In this document: positions 1 through 64,000 of the stretch, in pieces
Layout: each line of letters begins with the position of its first letter
How positions within the stretch are numbered: position 1 is the stretch's first letter
Source: Proteromonas lacertae
Taxonomy: Eukaryota
Direction of reading: 5' to 3'
DNA: 64,000 nt
Assembly: GCA_002245135.1 (NCBI GenBank)
Contig: NGBS01000010.1
Span: forward strand, 124,001 to 188,000
Program-made: the position numbers and the translations under genes
The notes under the pieces: model-generated
Seen by the model: only the letters and a program-made list of their open reading frames with translations
The model's database searches: none
Told to the model about the DNA's origin: nothing

Positions 1-701
1 AAAGGACCAGGCACAGAAAAATACTTGATAAATGTAACAAAAACTAGCAATATTAAATAAATATACTCAACATAATCTATTATAACCATCGATATTTTGT
101 ATTTATCATATAATATATAAGATAAACAACCTAGAAGTAATTCCCATATTCTAGTATCAATCAAGAAATATGTATATTCAGCATGACTCTTATAATTCAC
201 ACATAAAAGTATATATGATACAATTGTAATTCCTAATACTACATATTTAAATATAATATTACACATTATAAATATTATAGGATAAAATATATAAAATTGA
301 TTCTCAATAGATAAAGACCAAAAATGTAAAATTGGTGATTGATAGCCACAATAGAAATAATTGACTGATGATTTGTAAAATCTAATATTAGCTATATATA
401 CAGTTGCTGATTGAATATCTTTCAGTAAAGTAATGCTTTTAAAATAATGAGTATTATCTACTAATATCCACCATAAGCAAACATAGGCTGCTGGATATAT
501 TCTATTTATTCTTCTCTGATAAAATTTTAAGCAACTAAAGCCTTTTCTATATAAACTATTGGTAATTACAAATCCAGATACTACAAATAATATATCAACT
601 CCATATACACCATTTACCAAAAAAGATGTATAATAATGAAACAATAATACAAAGAGAATAGAAACTCCTCTTAAACCTTCTATATCATCTCTAAAATTCA
701 T
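1..701 (-). CDS. Acyltransferase-3 (OafA/OatA-like) O-acyltransferase, 3' end outside window
   Basis: Not in the ORF track. Manual translation from the ATG at 701 gives MNFRDDIEGLRGVSILFVLLFH...GVYGVDILFVVSGFVIT...FYQRRINRIYPA...ILHFWSLSIENQFYIFYP, which are AT3 family motifs. Paralog of the 728-2530 gene. Confidence 0.88.
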   Translation of the reverse strand, partial: MNFRDDIEGLRGVSILFVLLFHYYTSFLVNGVYGVDILFVVSGFVITNSLYRKGFSCLKFYQRRINRIYPAAYVCLWWILVDNTHYFKSITLLKDIQSATVYIANIRFYKSSVNYFYCGYQSPILHFWSLSIENQFYIFYPIIFIMCNIIFKYVVLGITIVSYILLCVNYKSHAEYTYFLIDTRIWELLLGCLSYILYDKYKISMVIIDYVEYIYLILLVFVTFIKYFSVPGP

Positions 702-727
702 CTTAATAATGACAAACTAGAATTGAA

Positions 728-2530
728 TTATTTGATTATATCCTCCAAAACTTTATTATAATTTGTTACTGATTCAAATCCATACCTATAAATTGTATAA
801 GTATTATTTCTATCAATTATTGACATATTCAATTGTTTTGAAAAATCTTCAAGTAATTTGATTGTTATATGAGGTAAAATATGATTATCATCTTTATATA
901 ATGATCTTCCATTTATAAATACATCGCAATCATTCTGACAAAACCACTTATTCACAAAAATATATTTGACATGAGAGTAATTCAATAATGGAAATTGATT
1001 CCATGTTGCATTTACACCTAATTTTGCTTTAACATTGTATATGTTGTTCAAAGTGAATGGTTCAAACAACAGAAATGGAGTATCTTGAATAACATAAACA
1101 TGATTTGAATATTTATTTATTTCTTTCAAATAAATAGGCCATTTTTCTTTTACAACTTCTTCTTTGATATGCCAATGATTATAATCCAATGAATGAGATA
1201 AAAATATATTATAAATTCTTCCTGTATAACTGAATATCTTTGATAATGTAGAAAAATCAATCGAAAGAATAGAAGAAATATACATATTGAAGTATATTAT
1301 CTTTCTTGTTGGAAATAAATCCAATCTCAAAAATATAGGAAACCATTGAAGAATATGAGAATCTCCAATAAAGAATGTTCCATTAAAATTCTTCAATTTT
1401 GATGAATCTCCACACCACATGTATGTTCTATCAAGTGTAATCCATTCTAATCTTGCTTCTTCCATCTTTTGGGTTATATTCAATTCACTATTAAATTCTA
1501 ACTGAAATTCTGTATATCTAACTGATATTATAACCAAAATAATAACTCCAATCACAATTGTAAGAATTGTATATGTTTTTAATTGCATTTTGTTTATTGG
1601 TTTTTCTATCATGTAATACAATAGCAAGGTCAAAAGGAATATCATTATATAGTTGATTGATAATGAATATTCTGATAATTTCAATATAGAATAGTGAACT
1701 AAATACAATGAAAATGATATATTACCAATAAATACCAGCAATGAGAAATTAAAAACATTACTCTTCTCATTTGCCATTAAATACAGACAAACCAACATTG
1801 CTGGTAAAATAGACATATATCCAGGATATGTAATGATTTGAGTATTATATAAATACAAACAAATCATTATTCCTATCATTGAAACATATTTCACAATGTG
1901 GGATAATCTGTAATTTATAATACTACAAAACATTCCACAAATAAATTCCCATAATCTTGATTCTATTGAAAAATATGAATAACTATGATTGGAGTAAGTG
2001 GTTAAACAACAAATTATAAAGGATAAGAACAACATCATCAACAAAACATTATTCAATATTTTTGCACTGAATGTATTATACATGAATAAAAAGATGATGA
2101 AAAAATGCCATTCTATTGATAAAGACCAATAATGAAGAATATATGATTGTATAGTTGGAGAGTAATAATCTAACACTTTCATGTAAAATTTAATATTCAA
2201 CACTTGAAGAACTGCATATTGAATATCATTTATAAATTCTTTTCTATATATTTCTGGTATTATGTTGATAAATATTAGTAAAACAACTAACACAAAATAT
2301 GAAGCTGGTAATAATCTTTTACATCTTTTTGATATATTAATTATAAAACCATTCTGTCTTTTCAGACTTGGCAATATTAGAAAACCTGAAATAATATAGA
2401 AAATATCAACACCCAAATAACCTCCAGGCAAATATTCTTCATTTGTATGATATACTAAAACAGCTAAACAAGCAATTCCTCTTAAAAATTGAATATCATA
2501 TCTAAATAATGTATTTGACAAATGTTTCAT
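728..2530 (-). CDS. AT3 acyltransferase fused to a C-terminal SGNH domain (OafA-like O-acetyltransferase)
   Basis: FRYDIQFLRGIA, GGYLGVDIFYIISGF, HYWSLSIEWHF, SRLWEF, GNISFSLYLVHY and many TM segments, then SGNH motifs FIGDSH and YKDDNH. First ATG is at 2530 (the track starts at TTG 2539). No introns seen. Confidence 0.9.
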   Translation of the reverse strand: MKHLSNTLFRYDIQFLRGIACLAVLVYHTNEEYLPGGYLGVDIFYIISGFLILPSLKRQNGFIINISKRCKRLLPASYFVLVVLLIFINIIPEIYRKEFINDIQYAVLQVLNIKFYMKVLDYYSPTIQSYILHYWSLSIEWHFFIIFLFMYNTFSAKILNNVLLMMLFLSFIICCLTTYSNHSYSYFSIESRLWEFICGMFCSIINYRLSHIVKYVSMIGIMICLYLYNTQIITYPGYMSILPAMLVCLYLMANEKSNVFNFSLLVFIGNISFSLYLVHYSILKLSEYSLSINYIMIFLLTLLLYYMIEKPINKMQLKTYTILTIVIGVIILVIISVRYTEFQLEFNSELNITQKMEEARLEWITLDRTYMWCGDSSKLKNFNGTFFIGDSHILQWFPIFLRLDLFPTRKIIYFNMYISSILSIDFSTLSKIFSYTGRIYNIFLSHSLDYNHWHIKEEVVKEKWPIYLKEINKYSNHVYVIQDTPFLLFEPFTLNNIYNVKAKLGVNATWNQFPLLNYSHVKYIFVNKWFCQNDCDVFINGRSLYKDDNHILPHITIKLLEDFSKQLNMSIIDRNNTYTIYRYGFESVTNYNKVLEDIIK

Positions 2531-2606
2531 TATAAACAACTATTATACAAAATAAATATTGAAAATATAAATCTAAACAAGCTATAATAAATAATTATAA
2601 ATTATT

Positions 2607-3725
2607 TTACCAAAACTCTTTTCTTTCATAACCATATTCACTAAAATATATATTTCCATTTTCAAAATATGGATAATTCAATGAAAAACCAACTGTATTC
2701 TTAAATTCATCTATTATTCTAACAACATTACTAGCTCTAGTACCACTAAATGCAATACAATGTAATGCTGTTTTAACATCAGCAATAAAATTCAATGTCA
2801 TTTTATCTCCTTTATTTAAATTTTCTGTATAATTATCATTTAATCTTTTAAAATTTAAATAGTAAACATCAGAATAATGCTTTTGAAAATAATCTATCAC
2901 TTCTGGATCATCAGATGATAAGTAAATTGGGATTTTTTTCTTAACAATGGAATTAAATAACTTTACAGAATGCAAGTATTTATCTGATGTTAATAATTGC
3001 ATTTCTTTATACTTATCTCCATGTCTAACCCATACATTAATACAACCAGACTCTAAATCATTTCCTACTGAATCTTTAATCATTTCACTTACTCTGTTAT
3101 TTGTTTTTTCATTCAATCTAAAAATATATGTTGTTGATTGTATTCTCCAGTAAGGCAGTAGATTCTCTTTTGGAATGACAGAATTTGACAGTAGTTTACT
3201 AACATAGGCTGGTACACAGTCAATACAATTATATAACATCCTTAGATATAAATATTTCTCTGTTTGAGAGCTGTTTTGATATTCAGTAGTATTTATAAAA
3301 GCTGTTCTAGGTAATGAACAGTTGGTTAACGGTTCAAAATAACATTCCCATGTTGTTATGTTATTACAGAACTCTCCAACTGTTTTTTTATTTTGGTAGA
3401 AAGGATCAAATACAACAATTCTGTTTATTGTAAGAGCTAATGCCAAATATGTACTGAGTACATGAATTTCAGATCCATGCCCTGTATCAAATCCGCTGAT
3501 TATAAGAAATGACTTATTTTCACAATTTTGAGGATTTTGATGTTGAAAAATATATTTTTGTACTTCATAGGTGTGTGATATAACATTTTTACAATTTGAT
3601 TTGGTATTGGGTGTCATTCTGTAATATGATTTATGAGGAAACTCACCTTTTACACTAATAACCTTTTTATTGTTATAACAATATAGTCTGTTAAATATTA
3701 CATAATGGTTTCTTTTGTGGATGTT
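2607..3725 (-). CDS. Alpha-1,6-fucosyltransferase-like protein (GT23/FUT8-like); 5' end uncertain
   Basis: GxGSEIH, WECYFEP, NVWVRHGDKYKE, IYLSSDDPEV and FSGTRASNVVRII match FUT8/NodZ-type motifs. The frame stays open upstream of ATG 3617 to ~3725. A hydrophobic MLLIYLF start near 3806 is out of frame, probably because of an indel. Confidence 0.72.
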   Translation of the reverse strand, partial: NIHKRNHYVIFNRLYCYNNKKVISVKGEFPHKSYYRMTPNTKSNCKNVISHTYEVQKYIFQHQNPQNCENKSFLIISGFDTGHGSEIHVLSTYLALALTINRIVVFDPFYQNKKTVGEFCNNITTWECYFEPLTNCSLPRTAFINTTEYQNSSQTEKYLYLRMLYNCIDCVPAYVSKLLSNSVIPKENLLPYWRIQSTTYIFRLNEKTNNRVSEMIKDSVGNDLESGCINVWVRHGDKYKEMQLLTSDKYLHSVKLFNSIVKKKIPIYLSSDDPEVIDYFQKHYSDVYYLNFKRLNDNYTENLNKGDKMTLNFIADVKTALHCIAFSGTRASNVVRIIDEFKNTVGFSLNYPYFENGNIYFSEYGYERKEFW

Positions 3726-3863
3726 TTAGTAAATAATATTATTTTCACGTTTTTTCTATGGTGTTGTTCAAATCAACTAAGTGTAAAACAAATATATAAG
3801 CAACATTATAAGGTGAATAAATTAGGCAATATACTCTTTCTTATATAATCGATTAATTGACTT

Positions 3864-4934
3864 ATGTTTTACCATTTGTTGTATATATCCTCAATTATAC
3901 TTATTTTTATATTTTATTCGATTGTATTTAATAAAAATGTAAATAGTAATTCGTATATGCCTTTTGTAGGAATGAGTTTAATTCACAAAACTAACTATTC
4001 CAAATATAACAACGCTAAGAGAAAAAGTGATAGGAATATAGCAGTAGTTACAACTTTAGCAAACTATCCATTTAATTTTATAAAAAGTTTCGTATATAGT
4101 TTAAAAAATGTAGATTATAAAGGGCACATCATATTGTTTGTAAGTGATATATATGATTTTAATTTATCTTATCCAATAATTCATCAAATTCTAGTAAATA
4201 ATAATTATCCTTATTATTTATCAGATAATAAAGAGTTTCCAATATCAAAAGATGTTTTATTAGAATATATCCCAAATCATTGTCATTGGAATACAAACAG
4301 ATATTATTTGTTTAGTATATGGTTAAAATTTTATCATTCAAAGTTCAATTATTTCTATTACTGTGATGGAAGAGATGTATTATTCCAACTAAATCCATCA
4401 ATGTGGAATTTTGGTCTAGGTGTGTATTTAACACTAGAAAGCGATAAAGTTAAGATAAAAAACAGTAATATTAATGTTATTTGGACAAGAGATTTTAAAA
4501 TGGATAAATCAATATATGAAGAACATGTTATAAATAGTGGTACAATATTTGGATCCTCAAATGAAATAACGCTATATATTTCCGAACTATTGTATATGCT
4601 CAAATATATAAATATGACATGTAATAATGATCAAGGCGCATTTATATATTATTACTATTCACATCCTCCTTTTCCTTATCCAGTTTATTTACAGAAACAA
4701 GGATATGGATTTGCTTTAACTTTAGTTGATTTAGGATGTGATTCATTCTTTACTGATTATTGTAAAAATAGCATTTCTATAAATGATAGTAAAATTTATA
4801 ACTTAGACGAAACTATTCCAATCATTGTTCATGGATTAGAAAGGTGGAAAAATACAAAGAATGAGACGAGAAAAAATGAGTATTACAACTTCATAAATAA
4901 ATATTATCCAAATTATTCATCAAAAAATAGCTAA
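3864..4934 (+). CDS. Type II membrane putative GT-A-fold glycosyltransferase (DxRDVxFQ family)
   Basis: N-terminal signal anchor. Motifs CDGRDVLFQLNP, INSGTIFG, NDQGAF and PIIVH. Paralog of 6070-7095. Confidence 0.65.
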   Translation: MFYHLLYISSIILIFIFYSIVFNKNVNSNSYMPFVGMSLIHKTNYSKYNNAKRKSDRNIAVVTTLANYPFNFIKSFVYSLKNVDYKGHIILFVSDIYDFNLSYPIIHQILVNNNYPYYLSDNKEFPISKDVLLEYIPNHCHWNTNRYYLFSIWLKFYHSKFNYFYYCDGRDVLFQLNPSMWNFGLGVYLTLESDKVKIKNSNINVIWTRDFKMDKSIYEEHVINSGTIFGSSNEITLYISELLYMLKYINMTCNNDQGAFIYYYYSHPPFPYPVYLQKQGYGFALTLVDLGCDSFFTDYCKNSISINDSKIYNLDETIPIIVHGLERWKNTKNETRKNEYYNFINKYYPNYSSKNS

Positions 4935-4942
4935 AAATGACA

Positions 4943-6057
4943 CTAAGTATAAAATGATAATCCAATTTTCCTCTTTACCTTTTCTGCTATTTTTTCAATT
5001 CTTTTCATAGTTTTATTCTTTATACTTTTCCTAAACTCTCTGCATAAACTCTCCATTCCACTTTTCATGTGCCTTGTATGTCTTAAATAAGCAATATTTG
5101 GATCAATCCATGTCTCTGTGATATTCATATGAATAGGAACATTGTGTACTTCTAATCCAGATACTTTAAAAGGACTAGCAATTACATATTTTCTAGCAAA
5201 TCCATTATATGTTTGACATGAAGAATTAATATTAAACATATTAATATCTTTTAATGGAATTGTTCTGTCATACTTTGATTCAACTACAATATGAGATGTA
5301 GGAAATAATCTTGTGTGTGTCCAATAAACATCATATTTGGGCAAGCTATTAAACAAATCATCATAACTATTTCCAATAACTGGCCACAATATTTCATCGT
5401 AATCACATTCCATTATATATTCTGCTATTTCTTGGTATTGATGAAAACAATGATTAAGTTTAGCTACTTCTCCATAATAAATGTTTCTCCACGCTATTTC
5501 CATTCCTTCATCATATTTATATAAATCCAAAATACCGTCTTTTATATAATAGTCTAATACTTTCATAACATCTAATGAAGAGCTTGTTAAGTAACTTACA
5601 ACCTTTGACACACCAAAATATTTTAATGATTCAAAATGTTGGACTAAATAGTTTGCTCTTGAGTAATTTACCAATATTCTTGAACATATTACATACTTAT
5701 ACTTCTTGTGAATTGGTTCAGGTATTTTTATATCCACATTGTTAATTCTAACATAATTTGGCTTTTCATTACTCTCAGTTAATATTTTTATATCAAAGAA
5801 TGAACTATCTATTTCACCATAGTATTTGCTGAATTTTGCTGTGCAATTAACACTTTTTCTACTATATATTAGTCCACATTTATTGATTTTTATATCAGAA
5901 TGAGGTGAATAACCATGTAATAATATTTGATTGTTACTTTTTTTATAAAATACTCCATTTATATAAGAACTTTTAAAAATTTGATAATGTATAGAAAAAA
6001 AAATATCGCTCCTATTGTAATAAGATAAGAGTTATATGTGATTATATTGATTAGCAT
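4943..6057 (-). CDS. GT92/DUF23-like glycosyltransferase (one apparent missing base near 6034)
   Basis: FGVSKVVSY, NHCFHQY, IMECDYDEILWP (DxD), KY and H motifs. The frame is open from the track's GTG at 5737 up to ~6031. ATG 6057 (MLINIITY..LLSYY) joins with a one-base correction. Confidence 0.7.
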
Positions 6058-6069
6058 TAATTTAAAAAA

Positions 6070-7095
6070 TTATATATTCAAAAATCTATGTTGATATTTT
6101 TTTGTTAAATTATAATCTCTATCATATTGATGAACAATTAAAGGAATAGTACCATCTTCATTATATAATGTTTCATTAATAATTCTCAAATTCACAAAAT
6201 TCCTGAAATGAGTTAAATCTAAGGCTAAACTATACACTACTCCCTTTTCATTTCTATTTATATAGAATTTTATGTTTTTAAAATAATTTGAGTAATATAA
6301 GAAAATAAATGTTCCTTGATCAATTGTGTCAGTATTGTTATCTCTTATAAAATTTGAATATTGACTCATAAATGGTATGAAATAATTCGATGAGCCAATT
6401 ATAGTACCAGAATTTAATACTTTGTTATTCAGTATTTGCTGTGACTTTGTATAAGCAGATACCCATATTCTATTATAGACTTCTCCATTAATTGTCATAT
6501 TATATTTTGTTTCATCAACAAGATAAACACCATCTTGAAAATTCCAATTAAATGGATTTCCTTGAAATACAACGTCTTTAACATCTACACTAATAATGTG
6601 GGTGTATTTTGAGCCATACGTCTTTAACCAACAATTTAATATTGACACTCTGTATATTGGCCATGGACATCCATATGATCTATTTCCAATCATACAATCA
6701 TTCAATACACTCTTTTCAATTGGAAAAAATGTATTATTCTTTGAATAAAATGGCCATTCATTCTCAATTAGAATAGGTTTTATTTTAAACTCTTCAATTT
6801 TTTCTTTCATCTCTTCATACTTATTTAATGAAATTCCCATTATCAAATCCCCATTATAACTATTTCTTAAAGAAGTAACAAACATAGACATTTTATCCCA
6901 ATTAAAACTTGCTGCAAATCCAAATACAACAGGATTTTTAATATTATAAATTATATTTTGATCATAATATAAGTAAGATGAATGAGTATAATTGTTATTT
7001 TGTATGGGAAAAAGACTTTTCTTTTTATAGATTGAACAAATTATAAATATAAATGATATTATAAATAGAAATATCAATAAATTCACAATGTTCAT
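6070..7095 (-). CDS. Type II membrane putative GT-A-fold glycosyltransferase, paralog of 3864-4934
   Basis: Signal anchor. Motifs FVTSLR, VDVKDVVFQGNPF, LNSGTIIG, IDQGTF and PLIVHQYDR. Confidence 0.68.
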   Translation of the reverse strand: MNIVNLLIFLFIISFIFIICSIYKKKSLFPIQNNNYTHSSYLYYDQNIIYNIKNPVVFGFAASFNWDKMSMFVTSLRNSYNGDLIMGISLNKYEEMKEKIEEFKIKPILIENEWPFYSKNNTFFPIEKSVLNDCMIGNRSYGCPWPIYRVSILNCWLKTYGSKYTHIISVDVKDVVFQGNPFNWNFQDGVYLVDETKYNMTINGEVYNRIWVSAYTKSQQILNNKVLNSGTIIGSSNYFIPFMSQYSNFIRDNNTDTIDQGTFIFLYYSNYFKNIKFYINRNEKGVVYSLALDLTHFRNFVNLRIINETLYNEDGTIPLIVHQYDRDYNLTKKYQHRFLNI

Positions 7096-7099
7096 CCTT

Positions 7100-8661
7100 T
7101 TAAGGTATATTCAAATATTCTTGAGTCATATTACATGAACAACCAAACACTACATGAAATTCATGACAATTTCTTGTTTTGGGTATTTTGTTAAATAAGC
7201 TAATTCCTCTCTTATTTTGTATATTGCTTAAATTCTATTAATAGAATAATATGTATTTATGTACACTTCCAAAATGAGCAATATCAAATAATGTTGAATG
7301 TAAATCATATCCTGTTACAAATCTATTTTGGTTAATTTTCATATTCATATTTATTTCAGGATACTTTTTTGAAAACCATTTAGGAAAAACCTATTCAAGT
7401 TATTATTTATATATTAATGTTTTATACCATAAACATCAATGGAAGAGAATGATCTAAAGTTCCAAACTACAACTATATAAAATATTATTCATACATTTGT
7501 TGCTTTATATGGACCATAATGAATTCCATGATCAGAAAAAATAATAAGCACAGAATCATTTAAAATTCTCTCTTTATGAAGGAATTTTATATAATCTGAT
7601 AAATCTTTGTCAATTCTTGGGAGTGATAATAATAAATAATCATGTGCTTCTAGAAAAACTGATACAGAAAAAGTAGGTTGTTTCTTTAAATGATAATATT
7701 TAATAGACTCTTTTAAATATTCAAATGCATATTTGTGAATCTCTTTATGACCTACACATCTTGCATGATGACCATATTGACCTTCTCCTCCTACATTACT
7801 ATAAATATAACAAATGATACATAAATAGTAATACTTATATCTGGGATCTTCACATAAGAAATTCACATAATGATCAGAACCATTATAATTATTATTTGCT
7901 GTTAATTTTTCATATGGATCTACGAATAGAACAGTATTTATAGTTTTATATCCTTCTTCTTTAAAATCTTCAAATATGATTTTATTGATATTTTGTCCTT
8001 CTGTCTCATTTACCCCATAAAATAATGTTGGATAATGTGGATTGGAATTAGCAGCTAAAGTATGATATCTTAACATATCATAAGTAGAGTAATGAGATGA
8101 AATAGATTTTAATGTCTTTACTGTTTGTTGTAATTGCTTTTTAGCAACATATCTTGATACTGCATCAATTAATAGTAAGTTTACAGATAATTTTTCACTC
8201 TTTATATTATTATCAATGTGTTGCGGTATGAATTTGATATACCAATCATAATCCTTCCCAGTATAATTTGATTTGGTTCTTACCACTTCAGACTGTAAAG
8301 CAATTGACTCTCCTTTATGAAGTGATTTAGTTCTGATTGTATATTTCTTTATATTTCTAACATATTGTGATATTTCTGTATTGATCAACGCATATATAGT
8401 ATTATTCTGTATTAAAATGGATGGTTTGACTAAAGGACAAGATTCATTATTTGATTTAACAATAATTGTATAATTATTCTCTGCATAACATGGTAATCTA
8501 CACAATTCTTGATCAAAATCATATTCAACATTATCAATTAAACTTGAACATAAATAATTTCTTATTTGTGTATTTTCATACTTGTATATATAATTTATTG
8601 TGGTAATAATTAAAATCATCATTATCAAGCTATATAAAAATATGTAATATATTCTTCTCAT
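7100..8661 (-). CDS. DUF229-like alkaline phosphatase/sulfatase-superfamily protein, 4 introns
   Basis: Signal anchor from ATG 8661. Motifs LLIDAVSR, EAHD and IIFSDHGIHYG. Removing introns 7799-7834 (36 nt), 7467-7494 (28), 7391-7427 (37) and 7235-7264 (30) gives GTLDHSLPLMFMVFPKWF...NQNRFVTGYDLHSTL...GISLFNKIPKTRNC..CSC, with the stop at 7100-7102. Confidence 0.8.
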
Positions 8662-8787
8662 CGTTATTAAAACCACTTCACCTTTAGTTATAAAAATAGA
8701 AATAATAACAATAAGGTTAGAAAAATGTAACAATATAAATTATATTCATTTACTAATAGAAACATATATTAACAAAAACTAAATTCT

Positions 8788-9497
8788 CTATTTCTTTTCA
8801 TTTATAAGGCTAAAAATTGTATCACATTGTGATATAAATATATCATTTTTATAATACCCATTACTTTTCAACAAATCTTCCATAGATTTCATAACTTCTG
8901 TACTTAAATGATTAGTTTCAATCATCCAGTGAGATACAGTTATATTAAAATCGAAAGTCATTAATACTTCCAATTCTGCACTTTCAACATCTAATGAAAA
9001 ATAGTCTATGTGTTTTACATTGTAAGAATTTAGAATAGTTCCTAACTTATAACATTTTGTCTTCGGATCTTTTTTATTATTACGATCTATACTTCCTCCT
9101 GTTCCTCCTTGCCAAAATACTGTATCATTAGTATTACATATTAATGAACAAACAATTTCTTAATTTTTTCTTACATTCTTATTATTCACCAGCTTTTTTA
9201 CAGTTATTTTCTCCTCCTTCTATTAATAATCCTTTCCAATTATAATTCTTTTCATAAAAATATGTATTACTCAACCATATTCCATCATAAGCACCCATTT
9301 CTACGAAAAATCCATCTCTTTTATTTTGAAAGAAATGACTAAACATTAATAAATCTTGACCAAACTGACTTTTAGCATTAGTTACATTAATTATATTGGG
9401 ACATTCTTTTGTAGTAACATCAAATACAGAATATATATTATAAATAAAAAAACCTTGCTAAGATTGATAGAAAAATGATAAAATAAATAATATTCAT
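8788..9497 (-). CDS. FkbM-family SAM methyltransferase with N-terminal anchor; frame disrupted (errors, an atypical intron or a pseudogene)
   Basis: SQFGQD, GFFVEMGAYDGIWLSNTYFYEKNYNWKGLLIEG and HIDYFSLDVESAELEVL. There are +1 shifts near 9455 and 9195 and an in-frame TAA at 9160-9162. Confidence 0.78.
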
Positions 9498-10355
9498 TTA
9501 AAACTTTAATGAATGGTAGAATTTATTTGTTGTTTTATTCTCTATTTTATTCCACATTTCTTCTGAAACATGTGTATTCCAACTGAAATAATCTCCTATA
9601 TATTTTTTGTCTATTATTACATACGAATAATTTGAAAAAATAACACTCTCTGGAACACTTGTTTCTGATATAGCATGTATTCCTTTTGATAATAGCTCAC
9701 TTATTCTATTTATCATTCTACTTGACCATCTTTGAACAAATTCCTTAGAAAAATATCCAACTGAGTTATTTGAATATATCATTCTCCATCTTGTATAATT
9801 ATCAGTACAACAATGAAGAAGCGGCCATAATGTATCACTATAAAGAGTTATTTCAGATGTTATAAAATCATAATCAGTCTTATCATATACTTTAAAAAAA
9901 TCGTTTAAAACACCACTATAACCAATATCTTGTTCTAATACCCAAACATATTTATATTTTTCTTTACACTTCTTATACCACTCTATTATTGACTCTGTGT
10001 GAGAAATCCAAGGATAAAATACTTCATCAGGAACATTTCCATGTCTACAATGTCCAGGTGTTCTTAAATCTTTTATTAGTGGATATCTTCGAATTATAAA
10101 ATCAGTATCAATTCTAAATACATTTCTAAACGAAAAATTGAATGTCGTTTTAGAATTTGTAATAATCCAAAATGTATATATTTTTTCTAGTTTTTTTATC
10201 CACGACAAATATCTCTTCTGTTGGTTGATTGCTGGATTAACAGCTCTTATTACAACAGCAATAGGATCATTATTTCTTCTCCCGTAATAAATTAATATAT
10301 TTAACAGAATAAATATTAAAAGTATCGCTATAAAAATAAATACATTTATTAACAT
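9498..10355 (-). CDS. Type II membrane protein, putative GT-A-like glycosyltransferase
   Basis: Intact 285-aa ORF with a signal anchor. YKYVWVLEQDIGYSG is an ExD variant of DxD, and the C-terminus is FYHSLKF. Confidence 0.55.
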   Translation of the reverse strand: MLINVFIFIAILLIFILLNILIYYGRRNNDPIAVVIRAVNPAINQQKRYLSWIKKLEKIYTFWIITNSKTTFNFSFRNVFRIDTDFIIRRYPLIKDLRTPGHCRHGNVPDEVFYPWISHTESIIEWYKKCKEKYKYVWVLEQDIGYSGVLNDFFKVYDKTDYDFITSEITLYSDTLWPLLHCCTDNYTRWRMIYSNNSVGYFSKEFVQRWSSRMINRISELLSKGIHAISETSVPESVIFSNYSYVIIDKKYIGDYFSWNTHVSEEMWNKIENKTTNKFYHSLKF

Positions 10356-10407
10356 AAATAAAAAACATCATTTTATAATAGGCTCGACTTGAGATTCTTT
10401 GTAAATA

Positions 10408-11821
10408 ATGAATAATATCATTGCTATATTAGTAGTATGTACAATAATTATTATTTTATCTTCTATTATTATCTGCAAATATCAATATAAAGGTCTTAAT
10501 AACGAATGTGAGTTTTTCTATAATGATTGTGCTTTGAAGATGTTTAAAGAAATATCGCATTATAATGTAGTACCTATTACCACTGTTTCATACAAATTTT
10601 TATCGCAATTCTATAATTTTTGGTTAGTTTCTGCAACAAAAACTGGATTTAAAAGATTCATTGTTATAGCTTATGATATTCAGTCATATAAATTTGCAAA
10701 GAATTTAACTCCATTTGTGCTGAAGAATAAACAATTAATAAATCAAACAGATGAAGTTGTGTTTTCAAATAAAGATTATATAAAGGTGATTATGTCAAGA
10801 ATGTTATTAACAAAACATTTAATTGATAATGGTTTTTCAGTTTTTGTAATGGACTCAGATATAATTCTTTTTAAAAATCCTATACCATACCTATTATTGC
10901 ATAATAATTATGATATTGTTTCACATAAAGAATTACCATATGATAATAAAAATGATATAAATTGTGGTTTTATGTATTATAATATTTATAATAGCTAGAA
11001 TGTTTCGACAATCAAAAAAAATGAGAATTTTCTTTAAGAATCTAACTGAAGCAGAAGAATATGCAAATGGCACAATTATTTATGATCAAGGATATATAAA
11101 TGATAATATAATTTCAGGAAAATATAACCTTTCAGTGTATAAATTTACATTAAATCAAGCAGTATCAGGATGGATTATGATGAATACATTAGGTTTGTAT
11201 TATTATGAAGATGTTGAAAAGAGTATACTAGATTATTTAATATTACATAGTAAAAGAAAATCTAATTGTAATTCATTTTGATTGGATAATATCTTTATTT
11301 GAAAAGGAGTATAGACAAAGGGAAATGTTATATTATGAATATGATGAGAATAATTATTATTCATCATTTAGTACCAAATATTTTCAATTAAATTATAATG
11401 CAGAGAATTTGGATTTAGAGAAAAAAATAACTCTCTTTGGATTACATATCGCTCTTGTATCAGGAAGAAAATTTATTATGCCAAAATATAATTGCAGCTA
11501 CAAAAACAGATTCACGAACATTAAAGGTAAAAAGTGTACTTTAGCAGACATGTTTAATGTTGGAGGATTATCAAAGGCAAAACATTTATTTAGAGAAAAT
11601 GTATATATATATTAATTTTATAATCACAATAGTCTTTCTTAAAAAATAAAAACATACCAAGTACTATAAAATCTTCGGTTATAACATTTCATGTAAATAT
11701 TATTACTGAAAAAAGTATTAATGAACTTCTGAAAAATAAAGAAAAAGTTGTGCATATATATTTCAAGAATATCAGTTGGGATGAAAGAAATGTAAATTAT
11801 AAAATAAAGAACATTATTTGA
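10408..11821 (+). CDS. Nucleotide-diphospho-sugar transferase (GT77-like), 3 introns
   Basis: Signal anchor. Motifs MDSDIILFKNP, INCGF, DQGYIN and HFDW..K. Introns 10974-10998 (25 nt), 11223-11250 (28) and 11601-11632 (32) join three track ORFs in frame, with TGA at 11819-11821. Confidence 0.8.
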
Positions 11822-11832
11822 TAAATATTTTT

Positions 11833-12943
11833 TTACAAAATGTGAGGAAATCTAATACATTTGTTTAATTTATTATTGTCTTTTACATCTGTATATCTTT
11901 CATTGTTTATAATTTCACCATTTTCATTTATAAATGCAATTCTGTTCTTTATTTCTTCATACTTTTTATTTTTGAAGAACATATACAAAACCAGTTTAGA
12001 GTATGTACTGTAATCATTCACAATTAAATAATCAGTCATGCTAGCAAAAATAATATCCCCTACAGTTTTTTCTATACTCCTATTATCGTATACTTTAGCG
12101 CTGTGTTTAGGAATTACATTTGGCCATAATAATACAGTTTTGTTATAATTGTAAGATAATTTACTATATAAAATTGAGTTTGCTGAACTAATAAACAACC
12201 AGCATTTCTTATTGCGAGTAAGGTTATTCACAACATTAATTATTCTTTCTATAATTGAATTTTCTATATCACAATGATTAGAAATAATACAACCATCATT
12301 TGATCTATAATGTAATCCTATTTTACATTCACTATTGTATGATTCTACATACTTCAATACTTTTATTCTTATTCTCTTTTTCAGTACTACAACATTACTA
12401 AATATTTTACTGTTAGTTTGATATATTTTTTCTTTTACACTACTTCTAATATCTTTTATATATTTGTTCTTCTTAAACCATTTTAATAATTTTTTACACT
12501 TTAACAAGGTCGGTATTAAATCTAACACGTCTATTATTACATACCCTGATTTACTTGATTTAAATAGGTTATTATAGAAATCACATATATCATCGCAATA
12601 TCCTTCCCACATAAACTGAATTAGTGTATAATTAATTGAAACATATTTAATAGGATTTAAATATGCATTACTATCAATATAGTCTTTGACATATTCATAT
12701 TTATTTACTATTTTATAGAGTTGATTTTTTTATTATACAGAATAGTTTTCTATGTGATAATTGTGATAGAATAAAACTACTTGAAATTCCAAACAATCTA
12801 TTACTCAATCCACTAAAAATAATATCATTAACAAACACCTTCTTTGTCTTTCTTATTCTAAAACATACACATATGGCTACAATAGTAATTGTAACAGCTG
12901 AAATAAATGTTGATATTTTTACCATTATAATATAAACCACCAT
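11833..12943 (-). CDS. Fucosyltransferase-like GT-B protein (GT11/GT23/GT37-like), 1 intron
   Basis: Signal anchor. Motifs SGLSNRLFGISS, IGLHYRSND, LFISS and STYS. A 31-nt intron at 12708-12738 joins the two track ORFs. Confidence 0.68.
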
Positions 12944-16400: not shown

Positions 16401-19400
16401 TAGATGAAAATGCTAAAGAGATTCAGAATTTAAGTCTTCAATTAGATGAAAAGGATGAAGTGATTATTAATTATGAAGAAGAAATAGATAAGTTAAAGAA
16501 TAGAGTGAGTAAGTTAGAGAATGATTTACAGAATAAAAAGAATGAAACGAGTATATTAGAAGATAATTTAGCTGATGTATCATCCTTACAATCTGCCTAT
16601 GATCTTTTACTTGTAGAAAAGTCAATATATGAAGAAGAGAATCAAAAATTAAAGAAACAATTGGATGATTTGAATTTACATATTCAGAATAACAATGATA
16701 ATTTCTTAGCTGATTTAAGAAGTCAATACGAGTCAAAATTACAGGAATTACAAGATCAGGTAAATAGAATAACATTATCACCAGTTGCAGATGATAATAA
16801 TAATACTGAAGATAATAATAATAATAATAATAATAATGGTGAAGGTATGGATTTAAGAAGAAGTAAAAAGATAGGAATTGAAGATTTACAGAAACAAAAT
16901 GAATTAGTATGGAATGAGAATAGAAATTTGAGAGATAAATTAAGACAAATTGAAACAAAGTTATTGGTTTTAGAAACATCAAAGCAAGTAGAAATCGAAG
17001 AGAAAGATCAAATAATTAATTCATTAAATGAACAGTTAAAGAAATCGAATGAGGGGAATATAAATGCAATGAAGAAGAGGTATGAAAATCGAATAATTGA
17101 ACTAACCAATGAATTGAATGAATTAAAAGCATTACAAACCATTAAAGAGGAAACAAATGAACAGAATTATTCTTCAATTGTATTTGAGAAAAATGCACAA
17201 ATTATGAATTTAAAGATGGAGAATTCTCAATTGAAAGATGGTATAGAATCAATAAAAGAAGAATATGATAACAAAATTCATGAATTAGAAACTAGAAATA
17301 TATTACTACAAGATAGTATGGAAACATTAACAAAGACTAATTCAACATTAAAAGAAAAGATAAACGAGCAATTGAACTTAATATCACAGAATCAATCAAC
17401 TGATTATGAATTACAAATGTTACGAAAAGAAAAAGAAAAGAATATGGAGATTATTAGCCAACTACAGAAGACAATAGAAACAATCGAATTATTGAAGAAT
17501 CAACCTGAATTATTAGCGAAATATATTGATCAAACAGATAGAATAAAAGACTTGACTTCTTTATTGGATGAACAAACAAAAAGATATGTTATAGAAATAT
17601 CAGAAATGTCTAATTATGTGAATGAATTAAAGAGTGATAAATCACTCTTACAACTTGATTATGAGACATTATACAGTCAATATTTGAATGAGAAAAAGAA
17701 GAATGATGAAGAGAATTCTGATAAAATACATCACTTGAAAGAATTGGAAGATGAAATAAAGAGAATAACAAAAGATAATGATTATGAAACATGTGAATTT
17801 CTACAATCATATGCAAAGAAATTAATAAAGACTGTTGAATCAGATATGGAAGTTGAAACTCATTTATATAAAGACTATATATCACAGAATTTGTCACAAA
17901 TCATAACACTACTTCAAGCATTATATGATCAATTAATAAAGAAAGATGGAAAAATGCCAAAGTCAAAAGAACTTCGTAATAAATTAGAAGATATTAGAAT
18001 TTTAATTCAGCAATATCCTGATGCAATGACAAGTGCATTACAGATTTCTAAGAAAGATCGAAGAGATATCAAAATATTGAAACGAAATGGCAAACATTTT
18101 GAAGAATATTATAAGAAAGTAAAGAATGAAAAAATGAAACAAGAGAAAAAATTCAATGAAGAAAGAAGAAAGTGGAGATATGATTATTATAGAAAATTGA
18201 GAATAATTCAAGAAGAATGTGATCAAAAAGTGGCAAGTCTTTGTTCTAGACTACGAAAAATAGAAGAAAAGCATAATAAAGAAGTTAAAGAATTAGGTAA
18301 GAATTATTGGGATAAATTCTTAAAAGCTGAAAAGGCTAATCGTAATAGATTATTGAGTTTGAGAAGTAATGATACTTCCTATCAATATAATGGTAAAGAT
18401 TATGGAAGAGCAAGAAGACAGTCAACGCTGTTATTAAAAGCATTAGCTCCATTGCCAGAAGAGAAAGAAGATGAAGAAAAGAAGGGTAATAATACAATAA
18501 AGAGTAGTAATGCAAATAATAATAAAACAATGAAAAATGCAGTAAAGAAAGTGTCAAATGGTATTAAAACTACAAAATTAATGAAACCAACAACAAAGAC
18601 TAATGTAAAACCAATAACCAAATCAGCTCCAATTGCTAAAAGAAAGGTAAAAGAAGATAATAAAAAACCTCTATATAAAACACAAATGACTAATAAACTA
18701 AGTAAATATGAAAGTAAATTAAGAAAACCGACTGTAAAGGCAGTAACATTAGCAACAATTGGATTTAGTAAGAAATCTAATAATAAACCAAAAACACAAA
18801 AAGTAGAAGATGTTCCTGTTAAAAAGACAATTAGATCAACAATTCCATCACATATTATACCTAAAAGTAAAAAACTTTTGAAGAAAAAAGTGAATGAAGA
18901 TAGTAATGATGAAAAATCAAAAATACCAAGAAGTCCTAAGATGAAGAGAATGAATAATATTCCAAATGAGAAAAATGAAAAAGAAGAAGAAGAAAAAGAT
19001 AATGAAGAAACAACACACACAATGATTCCAAAACCTGGAACTATACACTTCAATAAAGAAGATAATGACAATAATACTATAACCAATAGCAAATCATTAT
19101 CAAACTCAAGAAGAATATCCAAAATCAAACCACCAACAGATGTGAAATTATCATTTTCATCTAATGATAATGACAATATTATAAATAATCAGATGAGTAT
19201 GTCAGTCGATGGAAGAAGAAGAATTTCAAAAATAAAACCTCCAACAAATCTTAGTAGTAGTTATCGAGATAAAAACAGTCAGAATTTGAAACAGTTTAGT
19301 AATAAAGATCTTCCTCCACCTAAACCTATTAATAGAAACAAACAAATGAATGATTTAGCAAAATCGAAAGAAGAAAATGAATATGATACTCCAGAAAAGA

Positions 19401-20508: not shown

Positions 20509-20548
<40 letters not shown>

Positions 20549-23919: not shown

Positions 23920-26900
23920 ATGCTTACTTTAAGGCCAATGATTAATTTGATCCTTATTCCTTCATTATTATTTATATTGGTTCAGTGTTCAGGTATAAAA
24001 ATCGTATTAATTTGTTTAATAGTAGTTCCAGAATCTATTGTATTTATTGAACCTGTATCAAGTTCTTCAGCTGATTTGAAGTGGAATTATCCTGATATAG
24101 AGACTGTTAATGATTTAAAGTCTATAACAGCAATGTACACAATAAATAAAGGTGTAGATGAAGTTCAAAAGCTTGAAATTAGAGTAAATGATGATCCAGG
24201 ATGTGTTGATACAATCGAGACATATGCAAAACATATTGATGAAGTACAGGCAATAGTGGCTTACATATCTGAAGAAAATAGAGAGAGTGAAATACAGATT
24301 ATTACATTAATCCCACCATCAAGAGTTGAGTTGACAGAACCATTTATTCTTCAGTACAGTCCATCAGACGAAGTACAATATCAAAGTGATTTATTACCAG
24401 TCAATATAACTGAAGAAGATTTAAAAGTGGAAATAGAAAAATTTCATTTAAGTGTAGAAAAAGTTGTAAAAATATCAACCAACGAATCATCATCATTAAA
24501 CACTTTAATGTGGGAAATTACATATAATGAAACAATAGGTAATATACCACAGTTATATATCTTTTCAATGCAGGATAATACCAAATCAATCAGTACTACT
24601 AAGATAAATGGTAGTTCATTAAATATCAATTTTCATATACAATATGGTAATGAAAATACAACTACAGTTTTAAATGCAGAAACAGCTACATCTTATGATA
24701 TTCAGTCTGCATTATATTCATTACCATCTTATCATATTATATCCACTGTCCATATGATTCAACCTGATTTGTTTAGTAAGATATGGATGATAACATTTGA
24801 TGATATGAATTTGTATGGAAATATAGAGAATTTAATTATCCATACTGTTGATGATATAAACAATGAAGATGTTAATATGACAGTATGTAGTGAAGATAGT
24901 AATGATTTATTATGTGAAAATATCGATACTATTAATGGAAATGAGATAGGTGGAAGTTTTGATATAATCATTAAAGATCAAACCTTGTCAAACCTATCAT
25001 CAAAAATTACAGCAAATGAATTAGAAGAGAGATTATTGTCATTAAAAGGTGATAATAATCAAACTGTAGTTGGCGCTATCAAAGTTGAAAGAGAATTAAT
25101 TTCCAGAGAATATGGTTATAAATGGACTATATTTTATATTAATAATTCAAATCCACCAAAATTAGAGATTAAATCACATTTAACAGGAGTCGAAGCAAAA
25201 ATATCATTAAGAAGTGAAAATGGAGAAGATCGATCAAGTGGGTTATATGAAGTAGGTGATTATCTATTTGGTGAATTTAGAATAGGATATAAAGGAAAAT
25301 ATACAGATTATTATGATTTAAATAGTATAGATTCAACTATACAAATTGGATTAAGATCTTTATTTCAAAACGACAATATTAAAGTTGAATCTGATGTTAA
25401 TAATAGAATAATGAATGAGAATTATGTATGGTCAGTCACATTTCCATCTGAAATGGGTATGATTGAAGCATTAACAATTGATACATCATTAATATATAAT
25501 GGAACTGCATTAGGAATATCAACTATTAGAAACAAACCAGAAAAGCCATTATTTGAAGGAGATAATAACCATATTATAATGATCAATGATATAAGTGCAA
25601 TGAAATATAGAATTAATGATTTAGAGAGTAATAAACCATTATATTTTAAAGTTAAATTCAATACAATATCAGGTAATAATGAATATGAATATGATTTGGG
25701 TAGAATAATATGTAGAAATATGAAACCTTCTCCACCTGCTAAAGTATCATTAAAACAAGAACAACCTAATCAATTAAGTATAATTATTACACCAGGTAGT
25801 ACCGATGGAGGATTACCAATCAATTTTATTGGATTAGAAATGATGAAAGTTCCATTCGAGAATGAAGTTCAAATGATTGAATTAATTGGTAATACAAAAT
25901 CAGAAATTCAAATGGTTCATATTACATATAATGATGATAGTAACAATGATTATTATTACTTGAAGTTATATGGTTATAAGACAGGAAGAATTTTACCTTC
26001 AACAATGGAAAATGGAATTAAATATCAGTTAGAACAATTGCCATTTATCAATACAGTGAAAGTGAGTAAAGTGTATGGTTCAAATAGAAAGGATATTAAA
26101 TGGTATATTACATTTACATCCTTAAGTGGTAGATTTCCAACAAGTAGTGGTAATATTGAAGAATTGAATTATGAGACTTCACCTTATTTTAAAGGAGAAA
26201 TTGAAATACAAACAGTTGTAGATGGTCAAAAATCGATGGGTGGAACATTTAAATTGAATTTTGGTGGACAAATTACTAGTCCAATTCCATGGAATGCCTC
26301 TCCTTCCTATTTGAAATTAACTTTAGAAAAATTATCAACAATTGGTGTAGTTGATGTTAGTTTGTTAGAATTCCCATCATCTAGACAGTTACTAGTAACA
26401 TTTGTTGGATGTAGATTAGATGAAATTAGTGATGTTATAGTATGTAATTCAGGTCCACAATCATTATTTACTACAGATGCAAATCAATTAATTGGAGGAA
26501 TGGTTAATATCGAAAGAATAAAAAGAGGATCTGGTGCTAATATTGAAAGATATTCAGTCGATTCATTAGAAAAGAGAGAAAAAGATTTAGTTAAAGTTAT
26601 TTCAATCACATCTACAGAAGAATTTATTATCGTGTAGCATTAGAGAATAATATGGGATTGAGTTTACCAGTCATATCTACACCACCATCATTTTCCATGA
26701 AATCAAGTTTACCTGGTGAATGTAGTGAAATATTTGTAAAAAGTAATACTGTTACATCATTGTTTTTAGGATGGTTATCACCTATTTTGAATGGTCAATC
26801 TCCAATATTAGGTTATTTATTATATATGAATGATATGAGTGATAATAGTAATGATAATAATAATGGATATGAATTAATTGCCAATACAACTGCAACTGAA

Positions 26901-62531: not shown

Positions 62532-64000
62532 ATGGATTTGAAATGTGGAATAGATTTAGGATCAAACTATTTAGTGTCTTCATATTTTCGAGATAGTTGT
62601 ATTGTTTTAGAAAATGAGTTGAGTAAAAGAAAGACTCCAGTAGGTTTAGTATATAAAGACATGCATTTACTGCTTGGTGATACAGGTAAATCAAGTGAAA
62701 GACGAAATTATAATATGAGCTTTTATAATATAAGCGATCTATACAGTTGTGTTTTTACCGAAAAATATAAAGAAAATCACCCTAAAATTGAGTTGGACAA
62801 ATATATAAAACACGAAAATAATCAATTTGAATACATAGGAATAAAGATGTTGAAAGAAGAAGAAGTCTACCCTGAAACAGTATTGCTAATACTAATAAAT
62901 AATATTCAAAAACAAATAAAGATGAAAAACAAAAATAAATCTCTCAGTTGTACATTTGCAGTTCCTCCGATTTATAATGAAAAAGAAGTAAGATATTTAT
63001 ATGGTTTGTTTAAAGAGATGAAAATCAGTTGTAATAACATAATATCTACTTCATTATGTGAAGCATTATCCTATGGATATGAAAATAATATAAAATATAA
63101 AGATAATGATAAAGAATATGTGATGATAGTTGATTGTGGTTATTTATACTCTTCAATAAGCTGTATAGAATACCAGAAAAATAGGTTGAGAATGGTGTAT
63201 GAAGAGAGTTATATGTATAGAGCAGGTGAAAAAGAAGATTTTCATTTGTTAGAAATATTAAATGAAAAAATAAAAAAGAGTGAAGAATTTAAGAATATAG
63301 ATATTTATTCATCTTCAAATTATTATTTAAAATGTAAAGAATCAATAATCAAAAACAAAGAAAAACTATCTGCAACTGGTGCTGATACTGTAAGTATAGA
63401 AATATCTGATTTATATAAAGATGAAGATTTTAGTACAACTCTTAGTGTAGAAGAAATAAATAATAAATTAAGAGAAAAGAATATAATCAGTTGTTCTTTA
63501 GCAACTATGATATTTCGTGGTTTTAAAGAATATGAAAGAAAATGTAAAGATTTTAACATTAAGCAATTTCAAATAGTTATTCAAGGAGGAACTTGTAGAA
63601 TTCCATTTATACAAGAATCAATCAATGGAATATTGGAAGGAAAAGGTGTAAAACCAAGTGTAATAAATCAAACTCTAAATCTGGATGAGAGTGTAGCAAA
63701 TGGATGTTCTTATTATGAATTAATAAAAAGTAAAACATGGAGATATGAAATAGAAGAGTTTAATCCAAATAGCATTACTAATAAAGATAAAAAACATAAA
63801 AATAAGCAATGCAGTAGAGATATAAAATTAGATAAATCAATTGAACTGAGTGTTGAAGAAATTAATCATATAAAAGAAATAGTAGATCAAGCAAATAATA
63901 TGATAAATAAATCAAAGGAAATAGATTTACTGTTGATGAAGAAAAACGAATATGAAGCAGAATTATATAGTATTCAGAATAATGTAAAAGGTACAGACAT
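62532..64000 (+). CDS. Divergent Hsp70/Hsp110-like protein, 3' end outside window
   Basis: Not in the ORF track. MDLKCGIDLGS..LENELSKRKTP..CTFAVP..ALSYG..MIVDCG..KEKLSA..IQGGTCRIPFIQE..TLNLDESVANGC..KKNEYEAELY. No intron seen. Confidence 0.85.
   Translation, partial: MDLKCGIDLGSNYLVSSYFRDSCIVLENELSKRKTPVGLVYKDMHLLLGDTGKSSERRNYNMSFYNISDLYSCVFTEKYKENHPKIELDKYIKHENNQFEYIGIKMLKEEEVYPETVLLILINNIQKQIKMKNKNKSLSCTFAVPPIYNEKEVRYLYGLFKEMKISCNNIISTSLCEALSYGYENNIKYKDNDKEYVMIVDCGYLYSSISCIEYQKNRLRMVYEESYMYRAGEKEDFHLLEILNEKIKKSEEFKNIDIYSSSNYYLKCKESIIKNKEKLSATGADTVSIEISDLYKDEDFSTTLSVEEINNKLREKNIISCSLATMIFRGFKEYERKCKDFNIKQFQIVIQGGTCRIPFIQESINGILEGKGVKPSVINQTLNLDESVANGCSYYELIKSKTWRYEIEEFNPNSITNKDKKHKNKQCSRDIKLDKSIELSVEEINHIKEIVDQANNMINKSKEIDLLLMKKNEYEAELYSIQNNVKGTD

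Follow-up and report, generated by a model that had tools for sequence, protein, structure and literature searches.

The first 12,943 nucleotides (nt) of a 64,000-nt stretch of Proteromonas lacertae DNA (assembly GCA_002245135.1, contig NGBS01000010.1, positions 124,001 to 188,000 of the forward strand; hereafter the window, with positions counted from its first letter) contain eleven consecutive glycan-related genes, numbered G1 to G11 along the sequence, with no other kind of gene interspersed. We regard this run, with modest confidence, as a native and extremely compact cluster of membrane-anchored enzymes that build and decorate glycans and that, within the secretory pathway, likely cooperate on a single glycan specific to the lineage. 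The initial annotation of this DNA had described eleven such genes without a housekeeping gene between them, and this is borne out, with about eight or nine families represented: two AT3 acyltransferases, a GT23-like protein, a GT92, a DUF229 protein, an FkbM methyltransferase, a GT77, three proteins with a predicted GT-A fold, and a further fucosyltransferase-like protein. The gene content likewise matches its description of transferases accompanied by enzymes for acyl, methyl, and possibly phospho decoration, and the cluster does continue off the left edge of the window, where G1 is still open.

Gene layout and packing

Gene models were curated by hand from a six-frame reading, and each spliced frame was then checked for openness; an automatic splice-model search was dropped because it called too many introns and fused neighboring genes. 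Pfam assignments were counted when above the curated cut-off. The Pfam check of the cluster genes proposed in the initial annotation placed seven of the eleven above that cut-off (G1, G2, G3, G5, G7, G8, and G10), and the same scan gave no match of any kind for G4, G6, G9, and G11.

The gene models cover 95.7% of positions 1 to 12,943. In order from G1 to G11, the ten spacers measure 26, 76, 246, 8, 12, 4, 126, 0, 52, and 11 nt, and beyond the cluster the nearest gene is 650 nt away. The stop codon of G9 directly abuts the ATG of G8 (0 nt), only 4 nt lie between G7 and G6, 12 nt between G6 and G5, and 26 nt between G2 and G1, and the divergent pair G9/G10 has just 52 nt in common. The spacers at 728–10408 are too short for ordinary promoters, which suggests that promoters are located within upstream genes or that neighbors are co-transcribed. 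Since the head-to-tail spacers of 0, 4, 12, and 26 nt are too small for separate promoters, one could imagine an operon-like locus, in which runs of genes are co-transcribed and one unit sets a lineage-specific, perhaps variable, surface glycan; this would be the closest eukaryotic counterpart of an O-antigen locus so far, but we consider it doubtful.

The cluster also stands out locally. In a comparison computed inside the 64-kb window, 11 of 11 genes in the cluster were glycan related versus 0 of 24 other open reading frames (ORFs) or exons scanned at 13.6–64 kb. Two pairs of paralogs occur within the cluster, G1/G2 (34% identity) and G4/G6 (33% identity).

Acyltransferases and transferases assigned by Pfam

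Both AT3 genes are on the minus strand. G1 (1..701) starts with an ATG at 701 and runs off the left edge, leaving 233 amino acids (aa) visible; it matches Acyl_transf_3 (PF01757) at E 3.5e-16 (59.6 bits versus a cut-off of 31), and its visible part stops at the window edge ahead of any SGNH part. G2 (728..2530), a single-exon open frame of 600 aa, has the architecture of an AT3 plus SGNH O-acyltransferase, scoring 76.2 bits to Acyl_transf_3 (cut-off 31) and 28.4 bits to SGNH (cut-off 27). The G2 translation contains GDSH and DDNH stretches, which we take to be the SGNH catalytic motifs (Ser...Asp-x-x-His).

G3 (2607..3617, minus strand, 336 aa) resembles fucosyltransferases of the GT23 (FUT8/NodZ) type. 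It matches Pfam FUT8_N_cat at E 1.3e-9 (37.8 bits versus 27.6), across profile positions 191–429 of 499, which is the catalytic part only. G3 has no N-terminal anchor (Kyte-Doolittle maximum 0.69), a reading of the upstream sequence revealed no anchor-bearing exon, and the Pfam scan gave no SH3 match. FUT8 proper combines a type-II anchor and an N-terminal coiled coil with an SH3 domain at the C-terminus. Because G3 is without a hydrophobic N-terminus and without SH3, and matches only the catalytic part of the profile, its sequence indicates a GT23-like protein that is not a FUT8 ortholog.

The GT92 gene G5 (4943..6057, minus strand) consists of a main ORF at 4943–6031 and an ATG with hydrophobic segment at 6057 that is out of frame; its Glyco_transf_92 match (E 6.8e-25, 88.5 bits versus 23) spans profile positions 2–237 of 249. 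G10 (10408..11821, plus strand, 442 aa) is a GT77 gene with introns at 10974–10998, 11223–11250, and 11601–11632. Its exon 1 matches Nucleotid_trans (PF03407) at E 1.3e-15 (58.4 bits versus 22), and the spliced frame is open.

G9, a DUF3405-related protein, and the adjoining methyltransferase G8

G9 (9498..10355, minus strand, 285 aa) is a type-II anchored protein whose structural model has a mean predicted local distance difference test score (pLDDT) of 96.6. The model aligns with B3GalT5 at a Z score of 14.1 (root-mean-square deviation 3.8 over 210 residues) and with other GT-A enzymes, including chondroitin synthase, B3GalT6, B3GNT2, and LARGE1, at Z 12–14. All 50 entries listed have Z >11, and all but one are titled glycosyl- or sugar-phosphate transferase. 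On the basis of the model, G9 is predicted to have a GT-A fold.

Four close relatives of G9 are full length and share 51–80% identity with it, and an exhaustive profile search returned 231 relatives at E ≤ 0.001. W138, E141, and D143 are nearly invariant in the family. The DUF3405 profile is matched by 32 of 67 aligned relatives (best E 6.8e-10); G9 itself has no match. A sequence search of the PDB with the G9 family (5 and 67 sequences) returned nothing significant, an hhalign comparison of the G9 and G4 families, both shallow profiles, was not significant, and a literature search for DUF3405 found no paper.

Among 11 longer or top-ranked G9 relatives that were scanned, three are fusions, all from other organisms. 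In P0072, an FkbM methyltransferase is fused to the G9-type domain, and in P0128 and P0133 the fusion partner is Caps_synth/Gly_transf_sug (GT32-like). In the Proteromonas cluster, the gene next to G9 is G8 (8788..9497, minus strand, intron 9159–9189), an FkbM-type methyltransferase gene (PF05050). G8 exon 2 matches Methyltransf_21 at E 3.5e-7 (30.9 bits versus 22.7), and exon 1 adds a weak match of 13.6 bits at profile positions 2–41.

The unnamed GT-A-like family of G4 and G6

G4 (3864..4934, plus strand, 356 aa) and its paralog G6 (6070..7095, minus strand, 341 aa) are type-II anchored proteins of an unnamed GT-A-like family. BLASTP aligns them over 286 residues at E 1e-33, and G6, itself included in the G4-family alignment, has all 24 invariant columns; the acidic residues D168 and D171, considered for the DxD-type motif of a Rossmann-like GT-A fold, are invariant in this alignment. 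Six full-length relatives share 53–63% identity with G4, all from assemblies of public reads. The AlphaFold model of G4 has a mean pLDDT of 62. With its confident core, the best Foldseek matches were GT6/GT8 retaining GT-A enzymes (E from 6e-6, template-modeling (TM) scores 0.30–0.45), the first being ABO transferases, alpha-3-GalT, LgtC, glycogenin, and LARGE1. A PDB sequence search with the G4 family returned nothing significant, and hhalign of the G4 family against G10 was not significant, the profiles being shallow.

Contigs from metagenomes, viruses, and bacteria contain more distant G4 relatives (19–39% identity); the scan of JGI metagenomes with the G4 family yielded distant relatives only (21–39% identity). 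On a Mucilaginibacter chromosome (L172:1-12624), a G4/G6 relative lies inside a same-strand block of which 12 ORFs were scanned, nine with a Pfam match: five GT2, two GT4, one GT61, and one DUF5672. The G4 relative and two more ORFs have no Pfam match. In Geotalea (L160:1007-4386), another bacterial G4 relative is close to a gene for flagellin and to one for a TPR protein that includes GT9-like and GT47-like parts, and the region may be a flagellin glycosylation island.

The DUF229 gene and a second fucosyltransferase-like gene

G7 (7100..8661, minus strand, 488 aa; introns 7467–7494, 7391–7427, and 7235–7264) belongs to DUF229 (PF02995) and is similar to the alkaline-phosphatase superfamily. 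Its main exon scores 76.3 bits versus a cut-off of 25, its last exon scores 22.1 bits at profile positions 419–455, and the spliced frame is open. The translation contains DAVS and SDHG stretches, which we liken to the metal sites of the alkaline-phosphatase superfamily. A PDB sequence search with G7 gave no solved relative, and among the papers listed in a literature search for "DUF229", none dealt with this family.

G11 (11833..12943, minus strand, 359 aa) is a fucosyltransferase-like gene that we place, as a lead, in the GT-B fucosyltransferase (FucT) clan. Its intron (12708–12738) is supported because P0015, a full-length relative, runs through the sequence of exons 1 and 2 as one unbroken protein. 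P0015 is one of four relatives (43–68% identity), and neither these nor G11 has a Pfam match. When P0015 was used to query a language-model Atlas, the ten best named clusters all belonged to the NodZ/FUT8/O-FucT clan (scores 0.93–0.95). G11 also has motifs that we take to resemble those of the NodZ/FUT8/O-FucT/GT11 clan. A PDB sequence search with the G11 family returned nothing significant.

Anchors, introns, and native origin

An N-terminal hydrophobic segment is the usual type-II layout of Golgi enzymes. With a Kyte-Doolittle 19-residue mean >2.2 near the N-terminus as the criterion, an in-frame anchor is present in six of the nine non-AT3 genes (G4, G6, G7, G9, G10, and G11), which agrees with the earlier observation that most of these members are anchored. 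G5 and G8 also have an ATG and a hydrophobic segment, but the catalytic domain is read in another frame. The switch in G5 falls across a run of nine T (5995–6003), and the sole upstream ATG is at 6057; in G8, it falls across a run of seven T (9446–9452), with the ATG at 9497. The other nine of the 11 models have uninterrupted frames (285–600 aa, with G1 continuing for 233 aa to the window edge).

The host is a eukaryote, as the initial annotation had it, because the cluster contains short GT..AG introns and adjoins genes for a proteasome subunit, WD40 and CAP-Gly proteins, and the like. Introns number eight in the cluster, are 25–37 nt long, and are distributed over four of the 11 genes (G7, G8, G10, and G11); seven of eight begin with GTA, and seven of eight end with TAG. 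The G+C content of the window is 23–30%, and the G+C content at third codon positions (GC3) is 0.15–0.21 in the cluster versus 0.10–0.22 in the flanks. Database scans found no close relative of the G9 or G11 families on viral contigs, no close G9-family relative in the JGI metagenomes, and no close G2 relative in 185,579 prokaryote genomes. As GC3 is like that of the flanks, four of 11 genes have introns, and close relatives are missing from these viral (G9/G11), JGI (G9), and prokaryote (G2) collections, the cluster genes appear native to the host, and a recent foreign origin is unlikely.

One pathway or several

If the enzymes act together, the seven putative transferases (GT92, GT77, three with a predicted GT-A fold, and two fucosyltransferase-like GT-B) would extend a glycan, on a protein, a lipid, or a free polymer, from nucleotide sugars, and the FkbM enzyme would O-methylate it. 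The two AT3 proteins would move acyl groups across the membrane for O-acylation, with G2 using its own SGNH domain, and the DUF229 protein would install or strip a phospho- or sulfo-type group. The single pathway is a prediction, and its putatively fucosylated, methylated, and acetylated product is read from the family names. Joint action is supported because a G9-type domain and FkbM are fused elsewhere while G9 and G8 abut here, and because nematodes make galactosylated core fucose with a GT23 and a GT92 enzyme, although the latter is an analogy only. We also count in its favor the G4 relative within the Mucilaginibacter glycosyltransferase block.

Several points weigh against this reading. 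The Pfam scans of the 11 genes show no gene for nucleotide-sugar synthesis, transport, or export, and the co-expression and common product that a joint pathway calls for are hypothetical. The local contrast is limited to the 64-kb window. The two paralog pairs, at 33–34% identity, indicate that part of the run arose by local duplication, although duplication alone cannot explain it because at least eight families are involved. G3, being anchorless, may work in a different compartment, and the breaks in G5 and G8 may be homopolymer assembly errors or real frameshifts that make these genes pseudogenes. Finally, two family placements are less secure: the G4 fold matches reach TM 0.30–0.45 only, from a model with a low pLDDT of 62, and the placement of G11 in the fucosyltransferase clan is a lead drawn from the language-model proximity of a relative, not from alignment, with hhalign of the G11 family against G3 not significant (shallow profiles).

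Some of these points fit a different explanation, in which secretory enzyme genes came to lie side by side through local duplication and neutral accretion in a compact genome and serve several different glycans. The paralog pairs G1/G2 and G4/G6 are what duplication would leave, no sugar-activation, transport, or export gene unites the set, and G3 is anchorless, unlike the others. In nematodes, moreover, the genes for a GT92, an acyltransferase, and other glycosyltransferases that work on the surface coat are dispersed in the genome (PMC10151413). Such co-location without a single pathway is a real possibility, yet we judge it the less probable account: at least eight families side by side go beyond duplication alone, the fusion of the G9-type domain to FkbM or GT32-like domains elsewhere is a functional link between two neighbors, and scanning of further genes across the other 51 kb of the window turned up no glycan enzyme.

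It is improbable that the block is a foreign island from a bacterium or giant virus that still behaves as a bacterial polysaccharide locus. In its favor, the head-to-tail spacers are very short, distant relatives of the G4/G6 family (19–34% identity) occur on bacterial, viral, and metagenome contigs, and bacterial polysaccharide loci often contain AT3-SGNH and FkbM enzymes. However, the spliceosomal-type introns, the GC3 equal to that of the flanks, the type-II anchors in the proteins, and the outcome of the viral, JGI, and prokaryote scans for G9, G11, and G2 all argue for a resident origin, and GT92, GT77, DUF229, FUT8-like, and DUF3405-like are mostly eukaryotic families. We give still less credence to a decaying or misassembled region, in which some members are pseudogenes and the cluster is without present function. 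The separation of ATG and anchor from the catalytic frame in G5 and G8 is what such decay would produce, but it is set against nine of 11 uninterrupted models and full-length relatives of G4, G9, and G11, and breaks confined to homopolymers (here the T9 and T7 runs) are typical of sequencing error.

Comparison with known systems

Bacterial O-antigen and capsule loci combine unrelated transferases with AT3-SGNH proteins of the OafA/OafB type and methyltransferases at very short spacing, and they also contain Wzx/Wzy or ABC exporters, a priming phosphoglycosyltransferase, and nucleotide-sugar genes. The Proteromonas cluster shares the mixture of enzymes and the short spacers; unlike those loci, it is on both strands and has spliceosomal-type introns and Golgi-type anchors. 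The initial annotation had likened it to such a locus. As an analogy of layout this holds, but the Pfam scan of positions 1–12,943 gave no Wzx/Wzy, ABC exporter, priming phosphoglycosyltransferase, nucleotide-sugar, or transporter gene. Lacking export, priming, and sugar-activation genes, the visible part does not, by its gene content, qualify as an O-antigen or capsule locus. The proposal of a strain-variable "serotype" locus found no support: G4, G9, and G11 each have four to six intact relatives at 43–80% identity in other assemblies, which speaks for conservation and gives no sign of variation.

It had also been stated that eukaryotic Golgi enzymes are usually scattered, a generalization that overlooks known clustered cases (PMC4817252 and PMC5082852). 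In Ostreococcus tauri, genes for glycosyltransferases, methyltransferases, and sugar metabolism occur in blocks on chromosome 19, the small outlier chromosome of Mamiellales (PMC5082852). Like the Proteromonas cluster, this is a compact region of a unicellular eukaryote that is rich in glycosyltransferases, including GT92, and methyltransferases, with a proposed role in surface glycans. The Ostreococcus genes are spread over 100–290 kb among many unknown genes, occur with epimerases/dehydratases and sugar transporters, are partly foreign, and shift in expression in virus-resistant lines. The Proteromonas cluster, in contrast, packs its 11 genes into 13 kb without interruption, has a host-like composition and no sugar-activation or transport genes, and is known from sequence alone.

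In Aspergillus fumigatus, the galactosaminogalactan cluster consists of the co-regulated genes uge3, sph3, ega3, agd3, and gtb3 (PMC4817252). It is likewise a set of physically clustered eukaryotic genes that make and modify one extracellular glycan, and it is accepted as proof that eukaryotes can have such clusters. Its genes encode a single synthase-type transferase along with an epimerase, hydrolases, and a deacetylase. No member of these families was found in the Proteromonas cluster, where seven putative transferases occur with decorating enzymes of the acyl, methyl, and phospho type.

Similar enzyme types are also known from nematodes. The surface-coat genes include srf-2 (GT92), bus-1 (acyltransferase), and bus-2/bus-4 (PMC10151413), and galt-1 (GT92) and fut-8 (GT23) produce galactosylated core fucose (PMC5936828 and PMC6422873). 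There, GT92, GT23, acyltransferase, and GT-A enzymes, families also predicted in the Proteromonas set, build a fucosylated, galactosylated surface glycan. Unlike the cluster, the nematode genes are scattered, and the excerpt of PMC10151413 describes no cluster. A literature search for a glycosyltransferase gene cluster in ciliates found no paper. The Proteromonas cluster differs from the known eukaryotic clusters in lineage, enzyme mix, unbroken run, and extreme packing.

Other features of the window

The flanking genes in the window encode a proteasome subunit, WD40, CAP-Gly, Hsp70-like, and coiled-coil proteins, and giant fn3/PA14/filamin proteins. Stops ending long frames are TAA (11), TAG (4), and TGA (3; n = 18), so all three standard stops are in use, and one frame of 5,933 codons is uninterrupted under the standard code. 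In its tiny GTA...TAG introns, G+C content of about 25%, standard code with a preference for TAA, and high gene density, the DNA is similar to that of ciliates that retain the standard code; the gut ciliate Muniziella has a GC content of about 26%, the standard code, and TAA at more than 50% of stops, but its introns measure about 100 bp (PMC11316547). tRNA and Rfam searches of the 64-kb window gave no match.

At 23920–60677 on the plus strand, four adjoining frames of 905, 152, 5,933, and 5,209 aa are separated by gaps of 14–88 nt. They contain fn3, PA14, and filamin domains, and the first opens with a hydrophobic signal-like segment; they may belong to a single giant gene for a secreted or surface protein or to several genes. 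Since PA14 domains bind sugars, the encoded proteins may serve as partners of the glycan enzymes encoded nearby or as their substrates. Runs of ATA triplets at 20516–20545 (10 copies) and 16794–16837 (about 15 copies) are in or beside the frames of the WD40 gene region and the coiled-coil gene. At 62532–63998 (plus strand), a frame of the Hsp70 family is divergent, reaching only 100 bits against the Hsp70 profile, and leaves the window at the right edge.

Implications

In bacteria and giant viruses, glycan pathways are generally clustered; only a few such cases are documented in eukaryotes. If the Proteromonas genes form one set, it would rank with the largest of its kind in eukaryotes, with eleven enzymes drawn from eight or nine families in an unbroken run. 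Membership in the cluster would also offer guilt-by-association clues for three families that have no function assigned, namely DUF229, the DUF3405-like GT-A family to which G9 belongs, and the unnamed GT-A-like family shared by G4 and G6. Finally, the near-zero spacing raises the question of how neighboring genes are transcribed in this genome.

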